NCBI RefSeq assembly: GCF_030013205.1
Contig: NZ_CP122648.1
Length of the DNA: 64,000 bases
Direction: 5' to 3' (one strand)
Origin: Escherichia coli
GTDB lineage: Bacteria; Pseudomonadota; Gammaproteobacteria; Enterobacterales; Enterobacteriaceae
A program made the position numbers and the translations under genes. Shown piece by piece: positions 26,143-53,661 of the stretch; within the stretch, counting starts at the first letter, position 1, and each line of letters opens with the position of its first letter. The notes beneath the pieces are model-generated. The model had not been told where the DNA came from. It saw only the letters and a list, made by a program, of their open reading frames with translations, and did no database searches.

Positions 26143-26748
26143 TTACTTAGTTTTCAGATCATTTTTAACGCTTTTCACACCATCTACCGCTTTGGCGATA
26201 CTTTCAGCACGGTCACTTTGTGCCTGAGAATCTACGGTACCGGAGAGCTGAACCACGCCATCGGTGGTTTCAACTTTCACATGACGGGAAGGGACGATAT
26301 CGTCCGCCAGCAGTTTGGCTTTGATTTCACTGGTGGTGGCGGTGTCACCCGCGTAGCCCTTCACCGAGCCTTCTTTAGCGTCGCGAACGTGCAGTTTGTC
26401 GCTGACAGAGGTCACCCCTTCAACGCCTTTCGCCACTTTCACTGCCTCTTCGGCCTGGGCCTGGCTTTCAACGAAACCGCTCAGGGTCACGACTTTTTGA
26501 TCGGTTTTTACAGAGATATCGGTGCTCTTGATGTTGTCATGATCCACCAGGGCCGCCTTCACTTTCGCGGTGATGGCGCTGTCATCCATGAAATTACCGA
26601 CTTTATTCATAGAGCTATCGACTTTTTGCCCTACGCTTTCATTGGTAGTCTGCGCGTTGTTTTCCGCGTAGGCAGAGCCGGTCGCGACGGCAGAGGTCAA
26701 CATTACAGCCAGCAGAGTTTTCGAAATCTTCAGTCTTGTCATAGTCAT
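26143..26748 (-). CDS. osmY: Periplasmic hyperosmotically inducible protein OsmY (two BON domains)
   Basis: ATG at 26748 gives [38 protein letters not shown].. (201 aa). Confidence 0.95.
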
Positions 26749-27140: not shown

Positions 27141-28727
27141 TTAATGCTCGCGGGTCTGGTGGAACTGAACGTCCGGATAACGTTCCTGTGCCAGGCGCAG
27201 GTTAACCATGCTGGTAGCGATGTAAGCGAGATTATCGCCGCCATCAAGCGCCAGTTGGCTTTCGTTCTTACGCTTGAACTCTTCAAATTTCTTCGCGTCC
27301 GCACATTCTACCCACCGGGCGGTGGCAACGTTGACTGATTCATATACTGCTTCAACGTTGTATTCGCTCTTCAGGCGCGATACCACTACATCAAACTGCA
27401 GCACACCAACCGCACCAACGATCAGGTCGTTGTTGGAGATCGGACGGAACACCTGCACCGCGCCCTCTTCGGAAAGCTGTACCAGCCCTTTGAGCAGCTG
27501 TTTTTGCTTCAGCGGATCTTTCAGGCGGATACGACGGAACAGTTCTGGTGCGAAGTTCGGAATACCGGTGAACTTCATCATCTCACCCTGGGTAAAGGTG
27601 TCGCCGATCTGAATGGTGCCGTGGTTGTGCAGGCCGAGGATATCGCCAGGATACGCTTCTTCAACGTGCGAACGGTCACCCGCCATAAAGGTCAGCGCGT
27701 CGGAGATAACCACATCTTTCGCGGTGCGCACCTGGCGCAGCTTCATGCCTTTTTCATATTTACCGGATACCACGCGCATAAACGCCACGCGGTCGCGGTG
27801 TTTCGGGTCCATGTTGGCCTGAATTTTAAATACGAAGCCGGTAAATTTGTCTTCGCTCGCTTGTACGGTACGGGTATCAGTCTGACGCGGCATCGGCGCA
27901 GGTGCCCACTCCACCAGGCCATCCAACATATGATCGACGCCGAAGTTACCCAGCGCAGTACCGAAGAATACCGGAGTGATTTCGCCCGCAAGGAACAATT
28001 CTTTGTCGAACTCGTTAGACGCGCCTTTCACCAGTTCCAGTTCGTCACGTAGCTGCTGTGCCAGATCTTCACCAACCGCAGCGTCGAGATCCGGGTTATT
28101 CAGCCCTTTAACAATACGGACTTCCTGAATCGTGTGGCCTTTACCGCTCTGATAGAGATAGGTTTCGTCTTTATAAAGGTGGTAAACGCCTTTAAACAGC
28201 TTGCCGCAGCCAATCGGCCAGGTGATCGGTGCGCAGCCGATTTTCAGCTCGTTCTCAACTTCATCGAGCAGTTCCATCGGGTCGCGGATATCACGGTCAA
28301 GTTTGTTCATAAAGGTGAGGATCGGCGTGTCGCGCAGACGGGTAACTTCCATCAGCTTACGGGTACGATCTTCAACACCTTTTGCGGCGTCGATAACCAT
28401 CAGGCAGCAGTCCACCGCCGTCAGGGTACGATAGGTATCTTCCGAGAAGTCTTCGTGCCCCGGGGTGTCGAGCAGGTTAACCAGGCAATCGTGATACGGA
28501 AACTGCATCACAGACGTAGTAATGGAGATCCCACGCTGCTTTTCCATCTCCATCCAGTCCGACTTAGCGTGCTGGTTGGAACCACGGCCTTTTACTGTAC
28601 CGGCGGTCTGAATGGCCTGTCCGAACAGCAGCACCTTCTCGGTGATGGTAGTCTTACCGGCGTCCGGGTGAGAAATAATTGCAAAGGTTCTTCTTTTCGC
28701 TACCTCTGCGGCCAAAAGGCTTGTCAT
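27141..28727 (-). CDS. prfC: Peptide chain release factor 3, with prophage-supplied first codons
   Basis: From residue ~8 onward ([33 protein letters not shown]..) it matches RF3 to the C-terminal ..VQFHQTREH. The N-terminus here is MTSLLAAE, whereas the orphan native 5' end at 53497-53571 encodes MTLSPYLQ. Confidence 0.9.
28666..28679. repeat. att core copy 1 (prophage/prfC junction)
   Basis: GGGTGAGAAATAAT (minus strand ATTATTTCTCACCC, codons I-I-S-H-P of prfC) is repeated exactly at 53507-53520. Confidence 0.7.
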
Positions 28728-28747
28728 AATTGTTGTCTCTTTAATTA

Positions 28748-28862
28748 TGTACAATCATATGTACAAAGAAAAATTCATGCCGCTGATTGTACATTTTGGA
28801 GGTATCAGAGCATAGCAGAACATGATCAGTAGGTGTATTTGTAGCCAAAGAACATTTGTACA
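28748..28862. repeat. Cluster of four TGTACA-core sites (candidate integrase arm-type sites, prfC-proximal end)
   Basis: TGTACA at 28748, 28760, 28788 and 28857, in the contexts tATGTACAAt, tATGTACAAa, aTTGTACATt and tTTGTACATg. A mirror cluster lies at 53286-53342. Confidence 0.45.
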
Positions 28863-28887
28863 TGCAGCAATCTTTGTTCTATTGACA

Positions 28888-28931
28888 CTGTTTATTCATA
28901 CAGTTAAAAATAACACTGTATACAAACACAG
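28888..28931. promoter_or_regulatory. Two tandem LexA (SOS) boxes in the dinI-like promoter
   Basis: CTGTTTATTCATACAG (28888-28903) and CTGTATACAAACACAG (28916-28931) both fit CTGT-N8-ACAG. TTGACA at 28882-28887 precedes box 1, and the ATG of the DinI-like gene is at 28947. Confidence 0.75.
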
Positions 28932-28946
28932 TGTAGAGGGATTTTT

Positions 28947-29195
28947 ATGCGTATTGAGATCTGCATAGCTAAAGAGAAAATGACTAAAATGCCAAGCGGT
29001 GCTGTGGATGCGTTAAAGGAAGAATTAACTCGACGCATCAGTAAGCGTTATGACGATGTAGAGGTGATCGTAAAAGCCACCAGCAACGATGGCCTTTCTG
29101 TTACGCGCACCGCCGATAAAGATTCAGCTAAAACTTTTGTTCAGGAAACTCTGAAAGATACCTGGGAGTCTGCTGACGAGTGGTTTGTTCATTAA
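28947..29195 (+). CDS. DinI-like protein (prophage-encoded)
   Basis: 82 aa, [59 protein letters not shown], parallels E. coli DinI (MRIEVTIAK..AIDAL..ELSRRI....ILQETWESADDWF). Confidence 0.85.
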
Positions 29196-29226
29196 GTTCA
29201 TCATCTCTGGACACCATTCACTTGTA

Positions 29227-29256
29227 TTGACTTTAAGATCATTAAATTGTAATAAT
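29227..29256 (+). promoter_or_regulatory. Candidate sigma70 promoter of the RT cassette
   Basis: TTGACT (29227-29232), a 17-nt spacer, then TAATAA preceded by TG. This predicts a start near 29262. Sequence match only. Confidence 0.35.
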
Positions 29257-29417: not shown

Positions 29418-29969
29418 ATGCATGACAATATTTGGTTTACATATAAAGCCCGTATCCAAGCGCACCATCGACTAGAATGGCTTGAAAAGCACTCTCAATT
29501 TATCCTCGTTTGGTATGCTATATTGAGTGCGGTACTTTCAATTGTAACGTTGCGATTTCCAAAAGTTCTAGGAGATAACACAGATATCGTTGCGGCAATA
29601 CTTTCGGTGGCCCTACTGGGTATTTCGCTGATCGTATCTAACCTAGATTTTCGTGGTCGAGCAATAGCCATGAGAAGGAATTATATTGCACTACAGCGAC
29701 TCTATTTTGACATTACCACCAGTCAACAGTTAACTCTTGAACAGAAAGAAAAATATTTTAATTTGCTCAATGAGGTTGAGAATCACCGTGACATAGATGA
29801 TAAAATTTCAAGGGTAACTCAAGTTGGACTTACGACGAGGATCCCCACACAAAAAGAAAAAATAATTGTTATTTTATGGATATTACTTCGAATATTTACT
29901 ACTGCCGCCCTTTATATACTCCCATTAATATATCTTTGGATTGACTATGACTGCAAGCAGAATTTTTAA
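29418..29969 (+). CDS. SLATT-like 2TM (+1 C-terminal TM) membrane effector candidate
   Basis: 183 aa. An N-terminal amphipathic helix (IWFTYKARIQAHHRLEWLEK) is followed by TM hairpin FILVWYAILSAVLSIVTL / IVAAILSVALLGISLIVSNL, a helical middle and a C-terminal TM IIVILWILLRIFTTAALYILPLIYLWI. RBS AAGGA upstream. The 3' end overlaps the RT start. Confidence 0.6.
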   Translation: MHDNIWFTYKARIQAHHRLEWLEKHSQFILVWYAILSAVLSIVTLRFPKVLGDNTDIVAAILSVALLGISLIVSNLDFRGRAIAMRRNYIALQRLYFDITTSQQLTLEQKEKYFNLLNEVENHRDIDDKISRVTQVGLTTRIPTQKEKIIVILWILLRIFTTAALYILPLIYLWIDYDCKQNF

Positions 29970-31317
29970 AAAGTCATTCTCGAAAAAAAACCTTCTAAAA
30001 GTATACACTGAAAAAATCAAAGAATCAGGAGCGATTGGCATAGATCGGATTCGCCCATCAAAACTTGATTTGACAATAAAAAATGAGATCGCTTTCATTT
30101 TTGAAAAGGTTAACTCTGGCAATTACAAATTTACAGCATATAAAGAAAAATTAATATCTAAAGGCGCTAACTCTACACCCAGACAGATTTCCATACCAAC
30201 TGCTAGGGACAGAATTACTCTTAGAGCTCTCTGTGAATGCCTTACGGAAATATATCCTAACTCCAGATTAAAACTACCACATACAGTAATTGACTCATTG
30301 AAAGAAGCATTAAACAGCAGTCTTTATGCTGAATATGCAAAAATAGATCTTAAAAGTTTCTATCCTTCAATTGAACATAAATTGATAATTAATGCAATAA
30401 AAAATAAAATTAGAAAAAAAGAAATTAGACAGTTAATAACATCATCATTAATCGTGCCTACTGTAAGTGGAACAACAGGAAGCAAAGGTATCCCGAATAA
30501 TACCAGAGGAGTACCTCAGGGATTAGCGATATCAAACATTTTAGCTGAAATATCACTATCTAATTTTGATGATGAAATCAATAAAATGCATGACATATGG
30601 TACATGCGATACGTTGATGACATTCTTATTTTAACACCAAAATATCAAGCAACAAAAATAGCTTCTCATATCATTGATAAGCTTCAATCATTAAATTTAA
30701 ACCCACATCCATTAAATGAAGAGAACTCAAAATCCAAAGTAGGCAGCTTGGATGAAAGTTTTAACTTTTTGGGATACCACATAGAAAATCGAGAATTATT
30801 GATAAAACATGAGAGCATTCTTAGATTTGAGTCATCTTTAGCAAGGATTTTTACTGCATACAGGCACGCTCTACTACAAGCTAAAAGTAAGCGTGATAAA
30901 GAACGAGCTGTTGCATATTGTCAGTGGAAACTAAATCTCAGAATTACGGGATGTGTGTTTGAAGGTAAACGATTGGGATGGGTATCGTACTTCTCACAAA
31001 TAACCTCAACAGCTCAACTTCGCTCTGTTAATCATACTATCAATAATCTTATCCGCCGATTCGGCCTTTCATCAGAAATAAAACCAAAGTCTTTGATTAA
31101 AACTTTCTATGAACTCCGCAGAGGTAGAGCGGAGACTTTTAAATACATACCTAACTTTGATAATTTACATATATCTCAGAAACGAGAACTTGTTTCTATG
31201 TGGATAGGTAAAGAGAAGGAAAAAAAACTTAGCAATAGTGAAATAGAGAGGAAGTTTAAATTTAAAATTGCGAAATCAGTAAAAGAGCTTGAAGAGGATA
31301 TCTCAGGAATATCATAG
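29947..31317 (+). CDS. Reverse transcriptase (non-retron, group-II-intron-like / UG-DRT-like)
   Basis: Motifs RQISIPTARDR, AKIDLKSFYPSI, RGVPQGLAISNILAEI, YMRYVDDILIL (YVDD at 30610-30621), FNFLGYHI and a maturase-like LGWVSYFSQ. ATG at 29947 (TTG at 29941 is also possible). Confidence 0.9.
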   Translation: MTASRIFKKSFSKKNLLKVYTEKIKESGAIGIDRIRPSKLDLTIKNEIAFIFEKVNSGNYKFTAYKEKLISKGANSTPRQISIPTARDRITLRALCECLTEIYPNSRLKLPHTVIDSLKEALNSSLYAEYAKIDLKSFYPSIEHKLIINAIKNKIRKKEIRQLITSSLIVPTVSGTTGSKGIPNNTRGVPQGLAISNILAEISLSNFDDEINKMHDIWYMRYVDDILILTPKYQATKIASHIIDKLQSLNLNPHPLNEENSKSKVGSLDESFNFLGYHIENRELLIKHESILRFESSLARIFTAYRHALLQAKSKRDKERAVAYCQWKLNLRITGCVFEGKRLGWVSYFSQITSTAQLRSVNHTINNLIRRFGLSSEIKPKSLIKTFYELRRGRAETFKYIPNFDNLHISQKRELVSMWIGKEKEKKLSNSEIERKFKFKIAKSVKELEEDISGIS

Positions 31318-35296: not shown

Positions 35297-37108
35297 TCAA
35301 CGAATACTGATGCCGGAAGCGGCTTTTTTGGTCACAATCACCGTACAGTCGGTGATATTGCCTGCCCCCTGATTGCCTTTCTGGAAAATCTTAAACTCCA
35401 GAGTGACGCTTCCCCTGCCACTCGGCATATCAATAACTGCACTGTAACTACCGGGAATGGCCCCTTTAGTTTCTCTGGATGCGATTAATACGCCGTTTTT
35501 GCGAACTTCAAAACCATAACCCGTGTATCTTGTACCTCCCGGGTTATTACCACTTCCCGGATCGCTATACGCTATTCCGTTAAAGATAATGGGCGGAATA
35601 ATGATTTGACGGTCAAAGTTATGATCATCGCTGATGGTGACTGTAACCGTCCCGTTTGGTGTTTCCGTATTACCCCACGTACCAGCCTGTTTCGGGAATG
35701 ATTTGGATACAGCTTTAACGAAGTCACCTCTGACCTGAGTCGCCTCCAGCATGCCCTTAATCGTACAGTTTTCATTTACCGTGACATTGTTGAGCGTCCC
35801 GGCGTTCGCATTCACACTGCCACTGATATCCGCATTTTTAGCGGTCAGCTTTCCGTCCGGTGTCAGGGAAAATGCCGGCGGATTTCCACCGCTGGTAATG
35901 GTGGGAGCCGTCAGGCGTTTCAGGAACACGTCATTCATGAATATCTGATCACCCTGACCAACAAACATCGGTTTTGTGTTGCCATTTGCAGGATTAATCA
36001 TCGCAATCCTGTCCGCCGCCAGCAGCACCTGACTCTGCATGCCGTCAGGGGTGTTCTCAATACCGGCACCGATACCCGCAATATAAAGGCGTCCGTCCTG
36101 CATCTGCTGCAGCTTCACTGCCCACATGCTGTTCAGGTTATTATTTGTATCAACCTGAACCTTCTGTATCTGCTGGATCGCTGCACTCTGGTCTTCCAGT
36201 TTCTTATTGACGGTCTGTGTTATTTCATTGCTGACATCCGTTATGGACGTCCTGATTTCAGTCAGGTCAGGCGCAAGCTGACCGTTATCAATCTGCGTCC
36301 ACAGCTCCTGAGCCAGATGGGTTTTCCCTATCTCGCCTTTGAAAAAATCCAGATAGCCTGATGCATCATCACTCGGCTGACCGACAGCCTCCACGAATGC
36401 CGATTTGCCAACGGTGTTCACACTGCGAACGTAAAAATAATAATCATGGCCCGGTTTGATATTGATACTGGCGGCTATCCAGTACAGCGCCGTGCCAAGA
36501 TAGCGTGCTGTGGTTTCAACCTGCCTGATATCCGCAATCCGCTTTTCCGAGAACCAGAACTCAAACTGTACCGTCGGATCATAAACCGCAAGATGCGGCG
36601 TGGCGGTTATCTGAAAATAGCCCGGCGTCAGCTCAATCCGCGACGGCGCTGCCGGTGCGGCAATCCGGAACGATACCGACGCCGGATCTCCCTGCTGCCC
36701 CCACGCATTTACCGCCCGGACTGTCAGCCTGTAGTTCCCCAGCGCCAGTTGCGTGAAGCGGTATGTGGTTTCCGTCGTCCGGGCCGTGCTGACCAGCCGC
36801 TCACTGCCGTCGTCCGCTGTTACGGTCAGACGGAGCAGGAAGCTCACGCCCTTCACCACCTTCGGCGTGTCCCAGCGCGCCAGCACCTGATATTCCCCGC
36901 TGTCTGCAGTGACTTCTGCGGTCAGGTGCTGCACCGCTGGCGGCGTGACACCATTCACCGTGCCGCTCTGGTCACCGTCAAAGTGCGCCCCGTTATCCAC
37001 GATGGCTTCTTTCTCCGGTACATGCTGCACGGCGGTGATGGCATACGTGCCGTCATCGTTCTCACGGATACTCACGCACCCGCATATACTGAGCAACGGC
37101 ATCAGCAA
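35297..37108 (-). pseudogene. C-terminal half of a lambda J-like tail tip/host-specificity protein (5' truncated)
   Basis: From ..[34 protein letters not shown].. onward it tracks the lambda gpJ C-terminal half as I recall it (..[46 protein letters not shown]..). The first ~12 codons are junction sequence. Confidence 0.88.
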
Positions 37109-37184
37109 CCCGCATTCGTCTCGGTGCGCGAAGGATATAACCTGAATCGGTTCGTGCTGCCTTTGCGGTTTCCTGATTCAGCAT
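37062..37184 (-). pseudogene. Terminase large subunit 5' stub fused to the J fragment
   Basis: ATG at 37184 overlaps the terS stop (TAATG) and reads [30 protein letters not shown].. for 40 codons. It then stops inside the J-derived sequence, in a different frame from J. Confidence 0.5.
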
Positions 37185-37678
37185 TACTCCTCCTGCTGTA
37201 ATTCCTCCTCATCATCCGCACCTGCTTCAGTCACCCGCAGGGCTATCTGATCGCGAAGATCATCAATAATGGACTGAACACGGCTCACAGCGGCAGGCTG
37301 CAGACCGCAGTCACGTTCAAGAATATCCGGTAATGTCTCCAGCACCTGCACGACCGCTTTTGCCCAGATGGCAAACTCCCGTCTGACATCACTGGCCGGA
37401 ATGAGTTGTGCCGTTTCCTGTTCGAACTTAAGACGCTCACGTTCAGACTGATACCAGGCTTTGCGCTCATGCGCGTCCATTTCGCCTTCTGCAACCGGCG
37501 GTGGTAATGCCAGAAATGCCGACACAATATCAACCACCCGATAAAGCTTGAGGTTGCTTTCATGCCCCCCTGCAACGGGTAGATTTTGCAGCCTTGCCGC
37601 AGCAGTCTGGCGATGTACACCTGACAATGCCGCCAGTTGACTGATATTCAGCGTCAGATTTTTTAACTCTCGATCCAT
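37184..37678 (-). CDS. Terminase small subunit (Nu1-like HTH)
   Basis: 164 aa with an N-terminal HTH (LNISQLAALSGVHRQTAAARL) and an acidic C-terminus. Lies immediately upstream of the terL stub and downstream of a cos-like site. Confidence 0.65.
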   Translation of the reverse strand: MDRELKNLTLNISQLAALSGVHRQTAAARLQNLPVAGGHESNLKLYRVVDIVSAFLALPPPVAEGEMDAHERKAWYQSERERLKFEQETAQLIPASDVRREFAIWAKAVVQVLETLPDILERDCGLQPAAVSRVQSIIDDLRDQIALRVTEAGADDEEELQQEE

Positions 37679-38020: not shown

Positions 38021-38110
38021 AAGCAACAAACGACATTGCGCGTTAAGATTTTCTTAATATTTAAGAAATATATTTTTTAATCTCATTTATTTTTGCAAAA
38101 GACTTTTCAT

Positions 38111-38686
38111 ATGCAGCGTCGAGAAATAAAGAAAATTACTTATTTAATCACTTTGATTTTAACTACTCTTTTGTTTGTTTATTTTTTAAGAACACCCACC
38201 ACAATCAATATGAAACAGGCGCATAAAATAAATCAACAACACCAGACAATTTTCCTTATCCGTCACGGTGAACGATGTGACAGAAGCAAAAATGCATGTC
38301 TCTCAAGCAATAAAGGAATTACCGTCAATGGTGCCATTAAAGCTCGTGATTATGGAAAAATATTTAGCAATACTTTCCCGTCATTCAGCCTTTACTCCAC
38401 GGATACCATACGGACAATGCAGACAGCCTGTTTTTTCTCTGGAGGAAAAGCAGCCTCCCGGATACCGTTGGCTGCAACATGTGGACTTGATGCTGCAAAG
38501 AACATACTCAAATTGTCATCCGATAATAAAACTACCGTTATATTCACCCATAATCATTGCCTGACACAAATAGCAAAAAAAATGAAATGGTGGAAGTTAA
38601 AGCCAGAATATCTTGAAACACTGGTTCTTCATATCGAAAACAATCGTCTCATTCTTGACGGAAAACTGACTCACGATAAAGCGTAA
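38111..38686 (+). CDS. Ais/PmrG-like LPS core heptose(II)-phosphate phosphatase homologue (histidine phosphatase family)
   Basis: ..[85 protein letters not shown]..LDGKL parallels E. coli Ais (..[83 protein letters not shown]..LDGEF). Has an N-terminal signal anchor. Confidence 0.8.
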   Translation: [191 protein letters not shown]

Positions 38687-39991: not shown

Positions 39992-40253
39992 AAGATGAAT
40001 TTCCAGGTTTTGCTTAATACGTGATTAATCTCAACGTTTTTTATAGATGTTAACAACATCGGAATGATGCATCACCGGCCCTGTCAGGAAATACAAAATC
40101 TCCACCGATAATGCACCATTACGCTGTTGTAAAAAGACAGCACTGGACTGTAACCGATATCACGTATTACAGAACAGGATGTGGATAAAGATTCAGGAAA
40201 ACATCCCACATATAATATGTCAGTGCCCAAAACAACTTGGTATCGTCTACTGC

Positions 40254-40328
<75 letters not shown>

Positions 40329-40745
40329 ATACTATGCGGTCTTCAGTAATCACACGAATTACCGTGAAAGCCAGCACTGGTCTTTCCGACGGTAGTAACA
40401 CCCCTGTGAACACCAAAATAACCGTCTTCCAGACCGACGAGAATACTAACGACATTTTTTCAGATATCAAAAATATATTTTGTTTTTAGTTTTTAATATA
40501 TGTATGCATCTGTATCAGAAATATACAATTTATATCATTACTAAATTAAAAACATTTCTCTGACGTCTGATTAAAACGTTCCTGTTCCAGTTCCGCGCCA
40601 ATCACACATGGTCATTGCGTTTTACCAGTCCATCGCCACTATCAGGCTGACCAGGGGACGCCCCACCCGAACTGCTGAGAATGCCAGGCACACAAAGAAT
40701 AATGCCCGCCAAAGCGTTCCTGCATACAATGACTGCAAAATTCAG

Positions 40746-41596
40746 TTATTCTTGAGCGGAGCCAGAACTCATCTCACTGAATGCAGCCATCCTGTAACCT
40801 TCCGGGGTGACCCCAAAATAACGCCTGAATACACTGATAAAATAAGATGTATTATTATAGCCACACTGCACAGCGATTCTGTTGATGGCACAGCTATATT
40901 GATGCAACAGCATTGCTGCCATTCTCATTCTCTCCGTAAGCAACAACTCACTGAAACATGTGCCTTCTTCTTTCAGTCTTTTTTTAACAAACTTTCACTC
41001 ATACATAACCGTGATGACACATCTCGCAGAGTCCAGTTTGCTGCAATGTCTGTATGAAACAACGCACCAAGCCTGCCGCTGATAGTACTGATACACGCGG
41101 TCATAAACGACGAAAACATTTTATCTGATGAAAAAAACGCCAGACACGAAAAGGAAAGCATTTCCGCTAAATTGTCCGTATGAATCTTTTCCTCATAAAG
41201 ATAATCAATCAGGATGCCCATCAATTCTGGCCTGGGAAAACTCATGCAAAGATATCGTGGCATTTTCCGGACTAAAACAACATCCTGTTTTACCCCACTA
41301 CGCAACAGGTAACGGCTAATTGTCGATTCACTGAGACTTATACGCCGAAAACATTCAGAAAAGGGCAATAACGGTCCAGCCCCTCCCCTGACAAGAAGTG
41401 CACTACCACTTTCCAGAGAGAGTACTTTTCCTTCGAAGAGCACAACAAACGGGGAATGAACAAAAATAACAGAACAGGCCTCATTCATATCAATATCCCT
41501 GACATTACTGGTCGCAAGATAAGTATATATCACTTTACAAAAATGCAAGCCGTGAGCCCCGAATTCACGACCACCAGCGTGTTTACTGTACTGCAC
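40746..41596 (-). pseudogene. AraC/XylS-family regulator (GadX/AppY-like) split by a frameshift in a homopolymer
   Basis: The 207-aa ORF ends ..CMSESLLKKD stop. The 66-aa ORF carries the second HTH (..INRIAVQCGYNNTSYFISVFRRYFGVTPEGYR). Adding one base to the T7 run at 40979-40985 restores ..SESLLKKRLKEEGTCFSELLLTERMRMAAMLL... Confidence 0.8.
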
Positions 41597-41767
41597 CAGG
41601 TTTACAGGTACAAAAAACCGCTCGACGGCGGGTTTAAGCTGTGTGGCGAAGTAACCACTCTTAACAGATTAAGATAAAATTTGCGGACCGCGGTAATTTT
41701 TTTTGCTAAATTAAAGCCATATAAAAAATAAGATCCATAAGAAATTATTAGTATACTAAGGTTTAAC

Positions 41768-42709
41768 ATGGCTACTATTGCGCAATCAAAGAAACAAAAA
41801 AAACTTAAAATTGGTTTTTACACCAGCAGTTCTGGGACTATCCGCAGCCATTCAGTTGCTAAGCAAGCAATTGAAAATCTGTATAATACTTGCGTAACCG
41901 TTACGAATAATCATTTTGATACCATCTATAGAAATAAAAAGTTAAAAATAGCTTTTATAAATAAAGATACAAAAGCTAAATATTTCTTCGGCTACATGTC
42001 ATGCTCACGAGAAGAGTATCTCCTTCCTTATATTGGTGATGAACACTGGAATGAGCACAACATACCACTAGATGATAAAAAATACATAGTCGAAAGAACC
42101 TATTTTTTATATTATTACGATAGTGATATTTTAATATTAACTCAAAATCATCTTGGGCCGAAAGAATCGGATTTAGCTTATCTGCTTTACAGCCAGAGTG
42201 GTAATCCTGGAAATAACTTTTCATTCCAAGCCATCTGGAAAAAAGAGAGCGTCAAAGAGCTACTTGAAACAGGAAGTACTTTGAGAAGTTGTGATATTGT
42301 CCTGGCTGCTCCCAGGAACTTTGATGCAACAAATTACCAGCTAAATAGTTCATTTTCTAAGGAACTGGTAAATATGATGGTAGGGCTGGGTGGAACACGT
42401 CTCAAGTTAAATCTAAGGGGACGTGCATCAGGGAGAGTAAAAGTCAAAGGTTATTTATCAGATCTCGTTAAGGATGGTATTAAAGAACTCCTTGAAAAAA
42501 TGCCGGGAATTGTAAAAAAAGCGGCAGTAACACAGCCCAAAAATACCGTTGAACAAAGTCTTCTTGATCAGGTACTCATTTCAGAAAAAAACATATATAC
42601 CGTTAATGGTTATGGCACTGATAGTGATGTTCTGCAAGCCATGATTTCTGCTAAAATTGATAACAATGAATACCTTAAGCAATACGATATCAGCAAAAAG
42701 AAGGTATAG
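41768..42709 (+). CDS. Orphan 313-aa cytoplasmic protein, first gene of a candidate two-gene defence cassette
   Basis: AT-rich ORF on the strand opposite to all neighbouring phage genes. I could recognise no catalytic motif. 3 nt separate it from the downstream membrane gene. Confidence 0.7.
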   Translation: MATIAQSKKQKKLKIGFYTSSSGTIRSHSVAKQAIENLYNTCVTVTNNHFDTIYRNKKLKIAFINKDTKAKYFFGYMSCSREEYLLPYIGDEHWNEHNIPLDDKKYIVERTYFLYYYDSDILILTQNHLGPKESDLAYLLYSQSGNPGNNFSFQAIWKKESVKELLETGSTLRSCDIVLAAPRNFDATNYQLNSSFSKELVNMMVGLGGTRLKLNLRGRASGRVKVKGYLSDLVKDGIKELLEKMPGIVKKAAVTQPKNTVEQSLLDQVLISEKNIYTVNGYGTDSDVLQAMISAKIDNNEYLKQYDISKKKV

Positions 42710-42712
42710 GAT

Positions 42713-43156
42713 ATGTTATTGAAATACTTAAGAAACCTGATTGTAAGTGTTTTTTGCACCTTGTTCCTACTGAGGTATATCCCTCAGATGGGGCATGCTG
42801 ACATACTTACAGCCTCCGGGGTTATTTCAACTGTATCCGGTATTTTATTTGGTTTTATTTTAGCCACAATATCAATTTTTAGTGCTGCTAGCGAAAACTC
42901 AAATGGAATAATAAAAGCATTAAAAAACAACAACATACTTCAAGTTATTATTGTAAATCTATTAACCGCAGGTGCATCTTTAATTACGGCATGCGTTATT
43001 GCTTTGATAGCAATGTTTGCCAATGAAAAGACATTGTTACATGGAGAAAAAATAGAATTTATTTTAATTATCGAATCTTTATCTCTTCTTATCATTTCAG
43101 TAATAACTTTTGCCTTTACATGGAGAAAAGTAAACTGGATACTCCCCCACATTTAA
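42713..43156 (+). CDS. Orphan 147-aa 4-TM membrane protein, second gene of the cassette
   Basis: Four hydrophobic helices (LIVSVFCTLFLL, VISTVSGILFGFILATISIFSAA, VIIVNLLTAGASLITACVIALIAMFA, FILIIESLSLLIISVITFAFTW). Confidence 0.7.
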   Translation: MLLKYLRNLIVSVFCTLFLLRYIPQMGHADILTASGVISTVSGILFGFILATISIFSAASENSNGIIKALKNNNILQVIIVNLLTAGASLITACVIALIAMFANEKTLLHGEKIEFILIIESLSLLIISVITFAFTWRKVNWILPHI

Positions 43157-46487: not shown

Positions 46488-47180
46488 ATGAACATAGGAA
46501 ACCGAGTCAGACAACTTCGCCAGGCGAAGAACATGAAAATCGCCGATCTCGCTGAAGCAATAGGAGTGGATGCGGCGAATATCTCACGCCTGGAAACAGG
46601 TAAGCAGAAACAATTCACTGAACAAGCCCTGAGTAATATTGCCAAGAGCTTAGGTGTTGATATTGCTGATCTCTTTACCTCAGACTTCAAAAGTAATACT
46701 GTATGTAAAAACAGTATTAGTGAGGATGTTGCGCAGGTGAAGGATGTATTCCGTATTGAAATGCTGGATGTCAGTGCCAGTGCGGGAAATGGCCTTATCC
46801 AGGGCGGTGATGTCATTGATGTGATTCATGCCATTGAATACAGAACTGATAATGCTGTATCGATGTTTGGTGGACGGCCAGCCAATCACATTAAAGTTAT
46901 CAACGTTCGTGGGGACAGTATGTGTCCAACCATTGAGCCAGGAGATCTCATCTTCGTTGATGTCAGTATCAATCAGTTTGATGGAGATGGTATCTATGTA
47001 TTTGGTTTTGATGATAAAATTTATGTCAAACGACTGCAAATGATACCTGACAAACTACTGGTGATTTCTGATAACCAGATTTACCGTGAATGGGGAATTA
47101 CCAGCGAAAATGAACACCGGTTTATGGTCTTTGGAAAGGTCTTAATCAGCCAGTCACAAACCCTTAAGCGACACAATTAA
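46488..47180 (+). CDS. CI-type prophage repressor (HTH + S24 LexA-like autopeptidase)
   Basis: 230 aa with an N-terminal HTH (NRVRQLRQAKNMKIADLAEAIGVDAANISRLETGKQ), an Ala-Gly cleavage context (SASAGNG), and the catalytic GDSMCPTI Ser and VKRL Lys. Confidence 0.9.
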   Translation: MNIGNRVRQLRQAKNMKIADLAEAIGVDAANISRLETGKQKQFTEQALSNIAKSLGVDIADLFTSDFKSNTVCKNSISEDVAQVKDVFRIEMLDVSASAGNGLIQGGDVIDVIHAIEYRTDNAVSMFGGRPANHIKVINVRGDSMCPTIEPGDLIFVDVSINQFDGDGIYVFGFDDKIYVKRLQMIPDKLLVISDNQIYREWGITSENEHRFMVFGKVLISQSQTLKRHN

Positions 47181-49263: not shown

Positions 49264-49800
49264 ATGTCATTTATTAAAACTTTTTCCGGGAAGCATTTTT
49301 ATTATGACAAGATAAATAAAGACGACATCGTGATTAACGATATCGCAGTTTCCCTTTCAAATATCTGTCGCTTTGCAGGACATCTTTCACACTTCTACAG
49401 TGTCGCCCAGCATGCGGTGCTTTGCAGCCAGCTGGTGCCGCAGGAATTTGCTTTTGAAGCGTTAATGCATGATGCAACAGAAGCATATTGCCAGGACATC
49501 CCAGCGCCACTGAAACGACTTCTTCCTGACTATAAACGGATGGAAGAAAAAATAGACGCCGTAATCCGTGAGAAATACGGGTTACCCCCGGTTATGAGCA
49601 CGCCTGTGAAATATCCCGATCTCATCATGCTCGCAACCGAACGCCGTGATCTCGGGCTTGATGATGGCTCTTTCTGGCCTGTACTGGAAGGTATCCCGGC
49701 AACAGAGATGTTCAAAGTTATTCCACAGTCGCCAGGCCATGCCTACGGGATGTTTATGGAACGCTTTAACGAGTTATCGGAGTTACGCAAATGCGCATGA
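49264..49800 (+). CDS. HD-domain 5'-deoxynucleotidase (YfdR-like)
   Basis: 178 aa, MSFIKTFSGKHFYYDKINKDDIVINDIAVSLSNICRFAGH..VAQHAVLCS..LMHDATEAY, matches K-12 YfdR as I recall it. H..HD motifs are present. Confidence 0.8.
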   Translation: MSFIKTFSGKHFYYDKINKDDIVINDIAVSLSNICRFAGHLSHFYSVAQHAVLCSQLVPQEFAFEALMHDATEAYCQDIPAPLKRLLPDYKRMEEKIDAVIREKYGLPPVMSTPVKYPDLIMLATERRDLGLDDGSFWPVLEGIPATEMFKVIPQSPGHAYGMFMERFNELSELRKCA

Positions 49801-49834
49801 GTCTTTCAACTGCACAACCATTGGAGGGGTAGCA

Positions 49835-50029
49835 ATGAACAACTTAATGACAACTAAACAGGTCGCCGACTTCTGTGGTGTTTCAATATCAACAGTGCTT
49901 CGCTGGAACAGCATAAACCATAGAACAGGTAAGAAATATAGACCAGACTTTCCTGATCCTGATATAAAATCCTGTCCCAATAAATGGGCATCACACAAGA
50001 TTTATAGGTTTGCGGGTATTATCGAATAA
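49835..50029 (+). CDS. AlpA/excisionase-type small HTH protein
   Basis: GGAGG RBS then ATG at 49835, giving MNNLMTTKQVADFCGVSISTVLRWNS.. (64 aa). This is the MerR-like HTH typical of Xis/AlpA. Confidence 0.65.
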   Translation: MNNLMTTKQVADFCGVSISTVLRWNSINHRTGKKYRPDFPDPDIKSCPNKWASHKIYRFAGIIE

Positions 50030-50761: not shown

Positions 50762-51781
50762 ATGACTTCTGAAAGCAACAGAATTGGGAAGATGGGTGTA
50801 AACTACATAGAAGGTGTATTGACAAGATGGGGATGGGGATATCAATCAATTTCGCAAGAAAATGATGATGGGTTTGATGGCTTAATATATATAAGATCTA
50901 AACGATTTGAGGCGAAAGATAAAGAAAACCGGAGTAAACAATCTTGGGAGTTCACTGGTGGGTTGATTCATGTACAAGTAAAAAGTGGAGATACATACAT
51001 TAGTAGTCGTAATAAAGATGAAATAAGGATCAAAATAAAAAACCTCAATGAAAAGAAGAAAATATGGTCTAGATCGTCTATTCTATGCATACTTGTATTT
51101 GTTTTTTGGGATCATAATGAAGTTGAGTATTCCTACTGGGCTGATCTTAAATCTGAATTAACTTATTGTGATAACAGTAGTACGCTAATAAAAATCCCCT
51201 TAAAAAATAGATTTATGAGATCCCAAGAGTGTAAGGGGCCTTTAAGACGACTTGCAAGGGTATCGGCCAACTATGCAGATAAGCCGCTGATAGATTTATC
51301 AAAATTTGACTCATTAAGTGGTAAGCTACCTACAAGTCTAAACAGTAACCTAAATTGTTCTTTGAAAAAGAAAGGTATTGAATTCTATCAGAAATGGCGA
51401 TTAATTGGGGCTACAAACCCTTATTTTGGTCCTGTTCTAATAAACAGAACTGGTTGGAGTCATATAACTCGACGAAATCGCCCAATAGCAAGAATTGAAG
51501 CAAGCTTTAATTTGTTACCTTTAGCAGCAAGAATTATAAATGATGTATCTACATGGCGAATGTTAACACCCGTACGACGGTATGATAATAGAAAGGATGG
51601 TTATGTTTGCTTTATAGATTTCGTTGGGTTAACAGCCAAAGTGAATTTAAAGAATCGCAACTCATCAGAAGTTATGGTTGTGTTAAAAAGGGAGAGGAGG
51701 TATAAACAGGGTGAAGACTGTTCCTCTGCGAAAACAAGATTATGGTTTTACACTGTTTATGAACCTGGAAGAGGAAAATAA
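50762..51781 (+). CDS. DUF4365-like (PD-(D/E)xK nuclease fold) N-terminal domain protein with unknown C-terminal domain
   Basis: 339 aa and AT-rich. The N-terminus ..IGKMGVNYIEGVLTRWGWGYQSISQENDDGFDGLIYI..(27 aa)..GGLIHVQVKSGDTYI fits the G..E....GW.....DDG.DG....VQVKS pattern. Confidence 0.6.
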   Translation: MTSESNRIGKMGVNYIEGVLTRWGWGYQSISQENDDGFDGLIYIRSKRFEAKDKENRSKQSWEFTGGLIHVQVKSGDTYISSRNKDEIRIKIKNLNEKKKIWSRSSILCILVFVFWDHNEVEYSYWADLKSELTYCDNSSTLIKIPLKNRFMRSQECKGPLRRLARVSANYADKPLIDLSKFDSLSGKLPTSLNSNLNCSLKKKGIEFYQKWRLIGATNPYFGPVLINRTGWSHITRRNRPIARIEASFNLLPLAARIINDVSTWRMLTPVRRYDNRKDGYVCFIDFVGLTAKVNLKNRNSSEVMVVLKRERRYKQGEDCSSAKTRLWFYTVYEPGRGK

Positions 51782-52052: not shown

Positions 52053-53276
52053 TCAGTTAGAGTCTGAGATAGTACAAGTAATGATCGATTCAACTCTCTC
52101 CCACCATGCCTGGTAGGCTTTACGCTGTTCTTCTAGATAATCGCTCTTATCATAAACTTGCCATACCCCTGGCAGTTTATGGCCGAGCATTATTTCTGCA
52201 ATATGAGGCGCAGTAAGATCAGAAAAGTTTGTTCGTGCTGTTCGCCTCAAATCATGAAGAGACCAATGAGGGAATTGATACCCCAAACGCCGCCATGCGT
52301 ACTGCATTAAATTGTAAGGCAGCGACTGCAATGATGTTCGTCCAACGGGTTCCCTGCTTCCTTCCTTAGTAAAAAGCATATCGGAACCATTGTTCATAGA
52401 GATAACGTACTTTATAAGCTCTTCAACCGGTTCAATAATGGGGCGCTTTAGCGGTTCGCCTGTTATATCCCCTGTCTTATGTCGTTCTGGCGGTACAGTC
52501 CATACCTTATTAATGAAATCAAAATCATCCACCCTAGCGGTAATTAGCTCTGAACTACGGCAGCCAAAATGCAGCAATAGTTTAATGAAGGCCCGGTATT
52601 TAGGAACCATTCGAGAACCATCGATCGCAGCATAAAGGATTTTAATTTCATCATGTGTCAGAAACCGTTTCTTCTGACCTTTACGGATATCCATATCTTT
52701 ACCCGTGATATCCGACAGCGGGCGGGTTTCAATGAGCTTTCTCTTATAGGCCCAGACATGGGCCTGCTTTGCGTTAATTAGCAATCGGTCTGCTATTGCT
52801 GGAGTCTTAGTGCTAAGAGGCTCTAAGACTTCTAACCAATCATGCAATGTAGCTGCATCGTGAGGGATACTCCCGATTTTAGAGAACAGGTGCAGCTCAA
52901 ACGAGCGGAGTATCTGTTCAGAACCTTTTTTATTTTTTACACAATATGCTTCATACCAGGCACGGATCACAGACTCTACCGTCATGGCTTCAGTAGCTTT
53001 TCGTTTTTCAGCCTGCTTGACCAATCGTGGATTACGGTTTGACTCGAGTTCACCACGAAGACGGAGAACTTCTTCTCTGGCCTCTTTTAATCCAGTTGCC
53101 GGGTAAGTTCCGATATCAAGACGCTCACCTTTCCCTGCCCATTGATAACGATATTGGAACACTACGCGACCTTTCGGTGATACTCTGACAGACAGACCAT
53201 CACGATCGGATTTAACCAAAACCTTATCACGTTCCTTTCCAACGACTGAACGCAACCACGCATCAGACAGCGCCAT
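52053..53276 (-). CDS. int: Tyrosine integrase, P4-type (DUF4102 N-terminal arm-binding domain)
   Basis: 407 aa, MALSDAWLRSVVGKERDKVLVKSDRDGLSVRVSPKGRVVFQYRYQWAGK..DIGTYPATGLKEAREE... The catalytic ..HDLRRTARTNF..MLGHK..VYDKSDY has R, HxxR and Y. Confidence 0.92.
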   Translation of the reverse strand: MALSDAWLRSVVGKERDKVLVKSDRDGLSVRVSPKGRVVFQYRYQWAGKGERLDIGTYPATGLKEAREEVLRLRGELESNRNPRLVKQAEKRKATEAMTVESVIRAWYEAYCVKNKKGSEQILRSFELHLFSKIGSIPHDAATLHDWLEVLEPLSTKTPAIADRLLINAKQAHVWAYKRKLIETRPLSDITGKDMDIRKGQKKRFLTHDEIKILYAAIDGSRMVPKYRAFIKLLLHFGCRSSELITARVDDFDFINKVWTVPPERHKTGDITGEPLKRPIIEPVEELIKYVISMNNGSDMLFTKEGSREPVGRTSLQSLPYNLMQYAWRRLGYQFPHWSLHDLRRTARTNFSDLTAPHIAEIMLGHKLPGVWQVYDKSDYLEEQRKAYQAWWERVESIITCTISDSN

Positions 53277-53285
53277 TACTCACCT

Positions 53286-53342
53286 TGTACAAATCGCAAA
53301 ACACCTCTGCTGCTTTGTACATTATGTACAAGTATATGTACA
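53286..53342. repeat. Cluster of four TGTACA-core sites (candidate arm-type sites, int-proximal end)
   Basis: TGTACA at 53286, 53316, 53325 and 53337, between the int start and the att core. Confidence 0.45.
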
Positions 53343-53496
53343 GATTTTTGATGAAAGCAAGCTGATCGATTTAAAGTTACATGAAAGAATTTTCAATTAA
53401 AGAAGCCACATAACCAAATGTATTTAAATGAGTTATATAGCTCAACCTCAATTAACTGAAAGGATTTTGAAAGAGTAAAAGAGCTTTAATTTGGGC

Positions 53497-53571
53497 TTAA
53501 TTATTGGGGTGAGAAATAATGGCAAAAGTGCGGCGCTTCGCCACCTCTTGCAAATAAGGAGACAACGTCAT
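53497..53571 (-). pseudogene. prfC: Orphaned native 5' end of prfC
   Basis: The minus strand reads ATG ACG TTG TCT CCT TAT TTG CAA GAG GTG GCG AAG CGC CGC ACT TTT GCC ATT ATT TCT CAC CCC AAT AAT TAA. This encodes [22 protein letters not shown] (the K-12 RF3 N-terminus), then NN and a stop at the junction. Confidence 0.88.
53507..53520. repeat. att core copy 2
   Basis: GGGTGAGAAATAAT is identical to 28666-28679. Similarity continues imperfectly on the prfC side. Confidence 0.7.
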
Positions 53572-53661
53572 AATTCTTTCTTCTTGAGTAAGCGGCATCG
53601 CGCCGCGCTTGTTGAAAACGAAAAATTGCGGCTATTTTACCCATCAACGGGGGGGAGGCAA

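Follow-up and report, generated by a model that had tools for sequence, protein, structure and literature searches.

We analysed a 64,000-nucleotide stretch of the Escherichia coli contig NZ_CP122648.1 (assembly GCF_030013205.1), which is referred to here as the window, and in which a defective lambdoid prophage of 24.8 kb (28680-53506) lies between a complete prfC gene, coding for release factor 3 (RF3), and a displaced copy of the 5' end of the same gene. The complete gene (27141-28727, minus strand) is a hybrid that codes for 528 amino acids. Its 5' end reads ATG ACA AGC CTT TTG GCC GCA GAG GTA GCG AAA AGA AGA ACC TTT GCA ATT ATT TCT CAC CC|G GAC, where codons 1-16 are phage DNA, codons 17-21 are the core at which phage and host DNA meet, and the remainder of the gene is native. 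The hybrid protein aligns with K-12 RF3 (PDB 2h5e) end to end from residue 7 with 2 substitutions; residues 2-8 differ from those of the K-12 protein and the hybrid is 1 residue shorter. The same junction is annotated as an intact prfC by RefSeq. At the other end of the prophage, a 24-codon open reading frame (ORF) on the minus strand (53571-53497), with yjjG directly upstream of it, carries the native prfC start and is closed by a phage-supplied NN-stop. The place of this stub, between int and yjjG, is marked by RefSeq in a closely related strain as a partial pseudogene ('hypothetical protein, missing C-terminus'). A reading made from the letters of the DNA alone (the sequence-only reading) had described the phage-type start of prfC and the orphan K-12-type fragment, and both were found again when the sequence was re-read.

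The two junctions have in common the 14-mer ATTATTTCTCACCC, read on the minus strand, which forms the attR core at 28666-28679 and the attL core at 53507-53520 and codes in prfC for the residues I-I-S-H-P of the GTPase G1/P-loop motif. It is, as had been claimed, the only exact sequence shared by the two junctions, and it is present in exactly 2 copies in the window. As proof of a junction the 14-mer by itself was rejected, because about 7.6 pairs of exact 14-mer repeats are expected by chance per 64 kb. The repeat is meaningful because the core and the surrounding coding sequence are identical, in frame, at 34 of 44 bases between both junctions and because homology breaks off exactly at the edges of the core: in BLAST comparisons the homology to phage cdtI starts at 28666, and the alignment of the attL query with empty-site genomes stops at 53507. 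The crossover therefore falls at the 14-mer, where the sequence-only reading had placed it. That reading had put the phage-supplied part at ~18 codons, which is approximate, since 16 codons lie upstream of the core and up to ~20 would be of phage origin depending on the position of the crossover inside it.

The phage origin of the new start is seen in free phages. Contiguous attP sites were found ~230 bp upstream of int in phage Ayreon (MF807953), which was isolated on K-12, and in phage cdtI (AB285204), the genome of which is circular. In both, the upstream region found in front of the hybrid prfC is followed by the MTSLLAA start ATGACAAGCCTTTTGGCCGCAGAGGTAGCGAAAAGAAGAACCTTTGC(A/C), the core, and then CAATAATTAAGCC (in short form CAATAATTAA), and the site encodes a mini-ORF of 23 residues followed by a stop. 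The surrogate 5' coding segment of 16 codons (28680-28727, minus strand) is identical in the attP of cdtI and one synonymous base apart in Ayreon (GCC for GCA). The matching attB is the empty site of E. coli KFu023, where yjjG is followed by a prfC with the K-12-type start and not with MTSLLAAE. When the five sequences (attB, attL, attR, and the two attP) were aligned, the partners switched exactly at the 14-mer core, and on paper attL and attR recombine into the attP of the free phages and the attB of the empty site. Since these sites match, what is seen in the window is a standard attB x attP integration with a phage-borne new 5' end, and we regard integration by site-specific recombination at the prfC codons as practically certain. 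The same sites bear out the claim that the element carries a diverged prfC start of its own and restores the reading frame.

To see how frequent the junction is, 5426 complete E. coli genomes were surveyed, a match being counted when at least 80% of the query was covered. The attR-type junction (161-bp query) was present in 699 genomes and the attL-type junction (181-bp query) in 700, the two sets being counted separately and not matched genome by genome; a query extended over the neighbouring dinI-like gene matched 653 genomes. The MTSLLAAE start is thus about as frequent as the prophage junction, and the junction with an intact prfC frame occurs in ~13% of complete E. coli genomes. These counts bear on whether MTSLLAAE could simply be the natural prfC allele of this strain, in which case the fragment at 53.5 kb would be an unrelated duplicated remnant and the 14-mer match a coincidence. 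Several exact 14-mer repeats are indeed expected by chance in 64 kb, but in free phages the MTSLLAAE allele, together with the 219 bp in front of it, runs on into phage DNA without a break, empty-site genomes carry the other, K-12-type start, and the counts of the two junctions agree (699 vs 700). The natural-allele reading is refuted by the free-phage attP and the five-sequence alignment, and we give it next to no chance.

The explanation that we consider very probable is that a lambdoid phage of the cdtI/mEp460/Ayreon group integrated in prfC and that the phage start replaced the native 5' end. In this event a tyrosine recombinase would have joined attP to attB in prfC codons 17-21 (I-I-S-H-P, the start of the P-loop). 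The P arm of attP holds the first 16 codons of prfC and its ribosome-binding region in diverged form. Because the crossover was inside the shared core, the surrogate start was fused in frame to the native gene, giving the 528-amino-acid RF3, while the native 5' end, with promoter, ribosome-binding site, and 21 codons, stayed at attL as the 24-codon stub with its phage stop. The structural genes have since been lost, with int, a candidate xis, and both att sites retained. Of these points, the four att sites, the breakpoints, the phage origin of the start, and the unbroken frame are directly seen in the sequences compared.

Immediately upstream of the core the surrogate and the native gene code for the same peptide, EVAKRRTFA, over 27 nucleotides of which 8 differ, and all 8 differences are synonymous, exactly as quoted in the sequence-only reading; the two arginine codons, for example, are AGA AGA in the surrogate and CGC CGC in native E. 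coli prfC. When 8 substitutions were drawn at random 200000 times, as a crude test, none of the sets kept the peptide. That every one of the differences is synonymous suggests that the phage copy has diverged while serving as coding sequence. The start context AATTATGAC is also common to the surrogate and the native gene, and the first 7 residues differ. Another possible source of the surrogate is the prfC of another bacterium, a piece of which would have been gained by imprecise excision or recombination, so that the synonymous-only divergence would reflect selection in the former host rather than upkeep in the phage. In keeping with this, the native-like start context is retained while the first 7 residues differ, and the prfC genes of different genera differ likewise, for example those of Serratia (MSPSEFAREVAKRR) and Pseudomonas. 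On the other hand, one and the same surrogate is fixed in ~700 genomes and in two independent free phages, cdtI and Ayreon, and the use of AGA AGA for native CGC CGC, together with the change of CGT to AGA that a lepA-targeting phage shows independently, looks like a drift to the AT-rich codon usage of phages under protein constraint. Nor did any bacterium with MTSLLAAE as its native start come to light, though no search was aimed at one. We consider a foreign prfC source unlikely, though it deserves some weight; it concerns the origin of the surrogate alone and is compatible with the phage integration proposed above.

All sequence upstream of codon 17 of the hybrid gene is phage DNA, and the native ribosome-binding site and promoter of prfC are for this reason gone from it. 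The entire upstream region is now the P arm of the former attP (28728-28946, minus strand), which has four TGTACA repeats (at 28748, 28760, 28788, and 28857), a weak Shine-Dalgarno sequence, AAGAG, and weak promoter-like matches. When the prfC strand of 28600-29250 was searched with a consensus scanner and a relaxed scan, the best sigma-70 matches reached 8 of 12 positions (TTTTCT-17-CATAAT; also a TACAAT element) and lay inside the TGTACA repeats, which are putative Int arm sites. TGTACA is found at 13 sites in the window, 8 of them in the two att arms, and the repeats are probably arm-type sites of Int; in Moraxella phage Mcat15, the integrase of which is 41% identical, two tandem copies of TGTACATAAT lie directly upstream of int. 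The P arm also holds two LexA-type boxes, CTGT-N8-ACAG (28886-28905 and 28914-28933), out of only 4 in the whole window. They lie 159-206 bp upstream of the prfC ATG and overlap the promoter TTGACA-18-AAAAAT (28882-28911, plus strand) of a dinI-like gene that is divergent from prfC (28947-29195, plus strand; Pfam DinI 1.5e-19, PHROG DinI 5.8e-31), being situated between and after its hexamers. These boxes are predicted to be operators of the dinI-like gene and not of prfC. The sequence-only reading was right that integrase-type repeats and SOS boxes lie upstream of the hybrid prfC, the boxes being on the dinI-like promoter and not on that of prfC. A terminator-like match at 28934-28913 was rejected, the palindrome there being that of the LexA box. 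Another LexA-type box, the third and a better one, TACTGTATGTAAAAACAGTA (46697-46716; 3 mismatches to the 20-mer consensus), was noted inside the cI ORF (46488-47180).

From these results we infer that phage DNA within the 219-bp P arm drives transcription of the hybrid prfC and that functional RF3 is made from the gene. That prfC has been functionally rebuilt is, we think, likely, and this is favoured because the divergence is synonymous only, the start context AATTATGAC is shared, the frame is kept in ~13% of genomes, and the same pattern is seen in the lepA system described below. Since no match above 8 of 12 was obtained, no particular phage promoter is named. Of the earlier claim that the expression signals of prfC are now prophage DNA, the displacement of the native promoter and ribosome-binding site holds, and the phage promoter is the part that we infer. 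Several points weigh against a functional gene, the possible foreign source of the synonymous pattern among them. On the prfC strand of 28728-28946 (219 bp), neither scan went beyond 8 of 12 positions for sigma-70. RF3 is non-essential, and because it is dispensable a loss of prfC expression would be tolerated. Ogura et al., the first to describe such a junction, called the transcription and translation of prfC in such lysogens unknown (PMC2323221), and Bobay et al. in their prophage survey place prfC among the genes that are disrupted by prophages (PMC3603311). Moreover, with the integrative elements of dusA, expression from the element promoter is below that of element-free cells (PMC8409611). 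If these points are decisive, then integration restores the frame and leaves prfC with an inadequate promoter, so that the gene is inactivated or strongly down-regulated and the lysogen is an RF3 hypomorph or null. However, that surrogate and native codons differ by synonymous changes only, in prfC and in lepA alike, is hard to explain unless the surrogates are translated as RF3 and LepA. The junction is also retained, with the prfC frame intact, by ~13% of complete E. coli genomes, and SXT, which uses the same site, is reported to provide the gene with a new promoter that works and a new N-terminus (Hochhut and Waldor 1999, as related in PMC8409611). We therefore judge inactivation of prfC to be improbable and retain the functionally rebuilt gene as the better explanation.

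The native expression signals of prfC are found at attL. A promoter-like site, TTGCCT-16-TAAAAT (53634-53661, minus strand; a 9 of 12 match), is cut off from prfC and aims through the orphan ORF to int, which lies 220 nt past the orphan stop. The int gene (52053-53276, minus strand) codes for a tyrosine integrase of 407 amino acids with the Pfam domains Arm-DNA-bind_3, Phage_int_M, and Phage_integrase, which is 98.3% identical over 407 residues to the integrase of phage cdtI; it reads away from attL and is co-oriented with prfC. No terminator-like site was found between the native promoter-like site and int, so that a housekeeping promoter of the host may drive int in the lysogen. The P' arm (53277-53506, minus strand) has TGTACA at 53286, 53316, 53325, and 53337, and these repeats overlap a candidate int promoter, TTGCTT-18-TATACT (53360-53331). 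A more speculative proposal, which we put forward as doubtful, is that the attP of this integrase family is a promoter-exchange module between prfC and int. Before integration, when the phage is circular, the surrogate mini-ORF and the promoter of the P arm would lie directly upstream of int, and this promoter may drive int as lysogeny starts; integration would pass it to prfC and bring int under the native prfC promoter, at a distance of 220 nt. A spacing of 210-250 nt from stub to int, with the two co-oriented, is retained in the 46 loci of the prfC and lepA types described next. If the proposal is true, the supply of RF3 would hang on a phage promoter within Int arm sites and int would depend on a host housekeeping promoter.

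A scan with an integrase alignment, for which one genome was taken per species, gave 55 full-length relatives of the window integrase. In 33 of these (47-99% identity) a co-oriented prfC stub is present 210-250 nt upstream of int, and the stubs close at the same codons (IISHP) plus 0-10 residues. The window integrase belongs here, having the Arm-DNA-bind_3, central, and catalytic domains and an int gene beside a prfC stub that ends in IISHP. The prfC-type relatives span Gamma-, Beta-, and Alphaproteobacteria, from other genera too, and their hosts include Escherichia, Trabulsiella, Serratia, ten Pseudomonas, Acinetobacter, Methylobacter, Microbulbifer, Burkholderiaceae, Variovorax, and Micavibrio; the Pseudomonas relatives show ATTATTTCCCACCCTGA. 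The broad host range of the prfC site is explained by the conservation of the P-loop. A lepA stub, MKNIRNFSIIAHID(N/S)-stop, precedes int in 13 of the 55 relatives (~45% identity). Loci of the lepA type (L008, at 26232-26478, L039-L049, L051, L055, and L064) have integrases ~45% identical and I-I-A-H codons at the lepA 5' end. In all, 46 of the 55 relatives were placed as prfC or lepA type and 9 were left unassigned, one of them with just 150 bp upstream of int. In Salmonella phage KK-2013 a surrogate lepA start, MKNIRNFSIIAHIDN-stop, is part of the attP and lies ~220 nt upstream of int, and this surrogate differs from native lepA by synonymous changes only, including CGT to AGA. Klebsiella phage 5 LV-2017 was rejected as a source of attP, as its record begins at attL and its far end is without a surrogate lepA start. 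Sister integrases thus share one attP design and act on paralogous P-loop codons, I-I-S/A-H, in the genes of two translational GTPases, and the integrase clade seems to have shifted between the P-loop codons of prfC and lepA. More distant relatives (L050, with int at 2501; L007, 2000-2190; L053; and L066) adjoin other targets. In a relative from Acinetobacter guillouiae int lies by the icd 3' end (…SEFGQAIIDNMDN-stop), and another, of 25% identity, lies by a tRNA gene. Two more, in Moraxella phage Mcat15 (L007) and Arsukibacterium (L053), follow short stubs; the stubs MMPTPSHLTTISIIGHTNDDI-stop and MSPALSHLNIAIIAGEDNCV-stop both have I-I codons.

That prfC is a known insertion locus of Stx and other lambdoid phages, as the sequence-only reading had stated, agrees with the literature (PMC2323221, PMC8138268). 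Exactly such a prfC junction was described in the Stx1 phage of enterohaemorrhagic E. coli O103 by Ogura et al. in 2007 (PMC2323221), the integration of the cdtI phage in prfC is attributed in PMC8138268 to Asakura et al. (2007), and Smyshlyaev et al. (2021) placed the cdtI and SXT integrases in one prfC-targeting cluster (PMC8138268). Compared with the lambdoid prfC phages (Stx1 O103, cdtI, mEp460, and Ayreon), the window prophage shows 97.5-98.3% integrase identity to cdtI and to Stx1a- and Stx2c-converting phages, and it has the same attP and surrogate MTSLLAA start as cdtI and Ayreon. Unlike them it has lost the structural genes that begin with the one for the large terminase subunit and end halfway through J, and in place of cdt or stx its cargo is the dinI-like gene, a UG17 reverse transcriptase with a SLATT protein, and a DUF4365 protein. 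SXT is a conjugative element of ~100 kb with int and xis under SetCD control, and its core would be a 17-bp site ending in CACCCTGA. The window element, in contrast, is a phage, and the 24.8 kb between its att sites holds phage and cargo genes only, with no conjugation or SetCD/SetR genes. The likeness to the SXT/R391 integrative and conjugative elements is the reported placing of their integrase in the cdtI-phage cluster (PMC8138268). The lepA-targeting phages KK-2013 and Klebsiella 5 LV-2017 have integrases that are ~46% identical and cross over in the paralogous I-I-A-H codons of a translational GTPase gene, but the target gene is another one and their arm repeats are of the ATGGACAC type instead of TGTACA. 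Gifsy-1 is the best-known lepA-targeting phage and may belong to the same group. The dusA-specific integrative elements (Farrugia 2015; Durand 2021, PMC8409611) likewise insert in the 5' end of a conserved gene, but with an unrelated integrase lineage and target gene. Phage 21 and e14 in icd also insert within a conserved coding gene and carry a replacement of the displaced end (PMC3603311); there, however, it is the 3' end that is replaced and the promoter and translation start remain native, whereas here the 5' end and all expression signals are replaced. The phenomenon is thus already published for an Stx1 phage, phage cdtI, and SXT. As the mechanism was already established by 1999 (SXT) and 2007 (phages), the window adds a correctly read example of a known mechanism and not new biology.

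The prophage itself retains lambdoid control genes, namely cI with an S24 peptidase domain, cro, cII, and Q, as well as a lysis cassette and int. A candidate excisionase of 64 amino acids (49835-50029, plus strand) is predicted from a match to PHROG 1553 (1.6e-33) over residues 64-127 of the ORF at 49646-50029. A deletion has taken out the structural genes, beginning with the one for the large terminase subunit and reaching through the N-terminal half of the tail protein J, of which a C-terminal fragment of 603 amino acids adjoins a small terminase-like DUF1441 gene (35297-37678). With this internal deletion all the head genes and most of the tail genes were lost. The portal, capsid, large terminase subunit, and tail genes are absent, RusA is truncated, and phage cdtI matches the prophage over 47% only; with no complete head and tail module, the prophage is a defective remnant. 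The closest genomes are those of porcine enterotoxigenic E. coli (ETEC) strains such as ETEC4067, and the sister strains W13-16 and ETEC1701 are ~3.3 kb longer at the 35297-37678 interval. Where cdtI carries cdt and other relatives carry stx, beside attR, the window has adjacent genes for a SLATT-domain protein and a UG17-class reverse transcriptase (29418-31317, plus strand; PADLOC 7.9e-57 and 5.9e-159), which form a candidate anti-phage defence pair. Beside int lies a gene for a DUF4365 protein (50762-51781, plus strand) with a weak PADLOC match to a restriction-endonuclease-like N-terminal domain, and beside Q lie genes for a DUF6731 protein and a small partner (41768-43156, plus strand), which phage cdtI has too, as orf53 and orf54. 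Possible accessory genes of the prophage lie at ~38093-38686 and ~40000-41600, for which the nearly identical ETEC4067 is annotated with a lipopolysaccharide core heptose(II)-phosphate phosphatase, a tRNA-Gly, and an AraC-family regulator. Its coordinates drift by 712 bp from those of the window between prfC and int, and an IS200C is annotated in the same ETEC4067 interval.

If prfC is functionally rebuilt as we propose, then in ~13% of complete E. coli genomes RF3 would be made on prophage signals and with a phage-encoded N-terminus. The carriers include pathogens that have Stx, Cdt, or defence-system cargo at the prfC site. The hybrid gene is scored inconsistently by annotation pipelines and prophage surveys, as intact by some and as disrupted by others.

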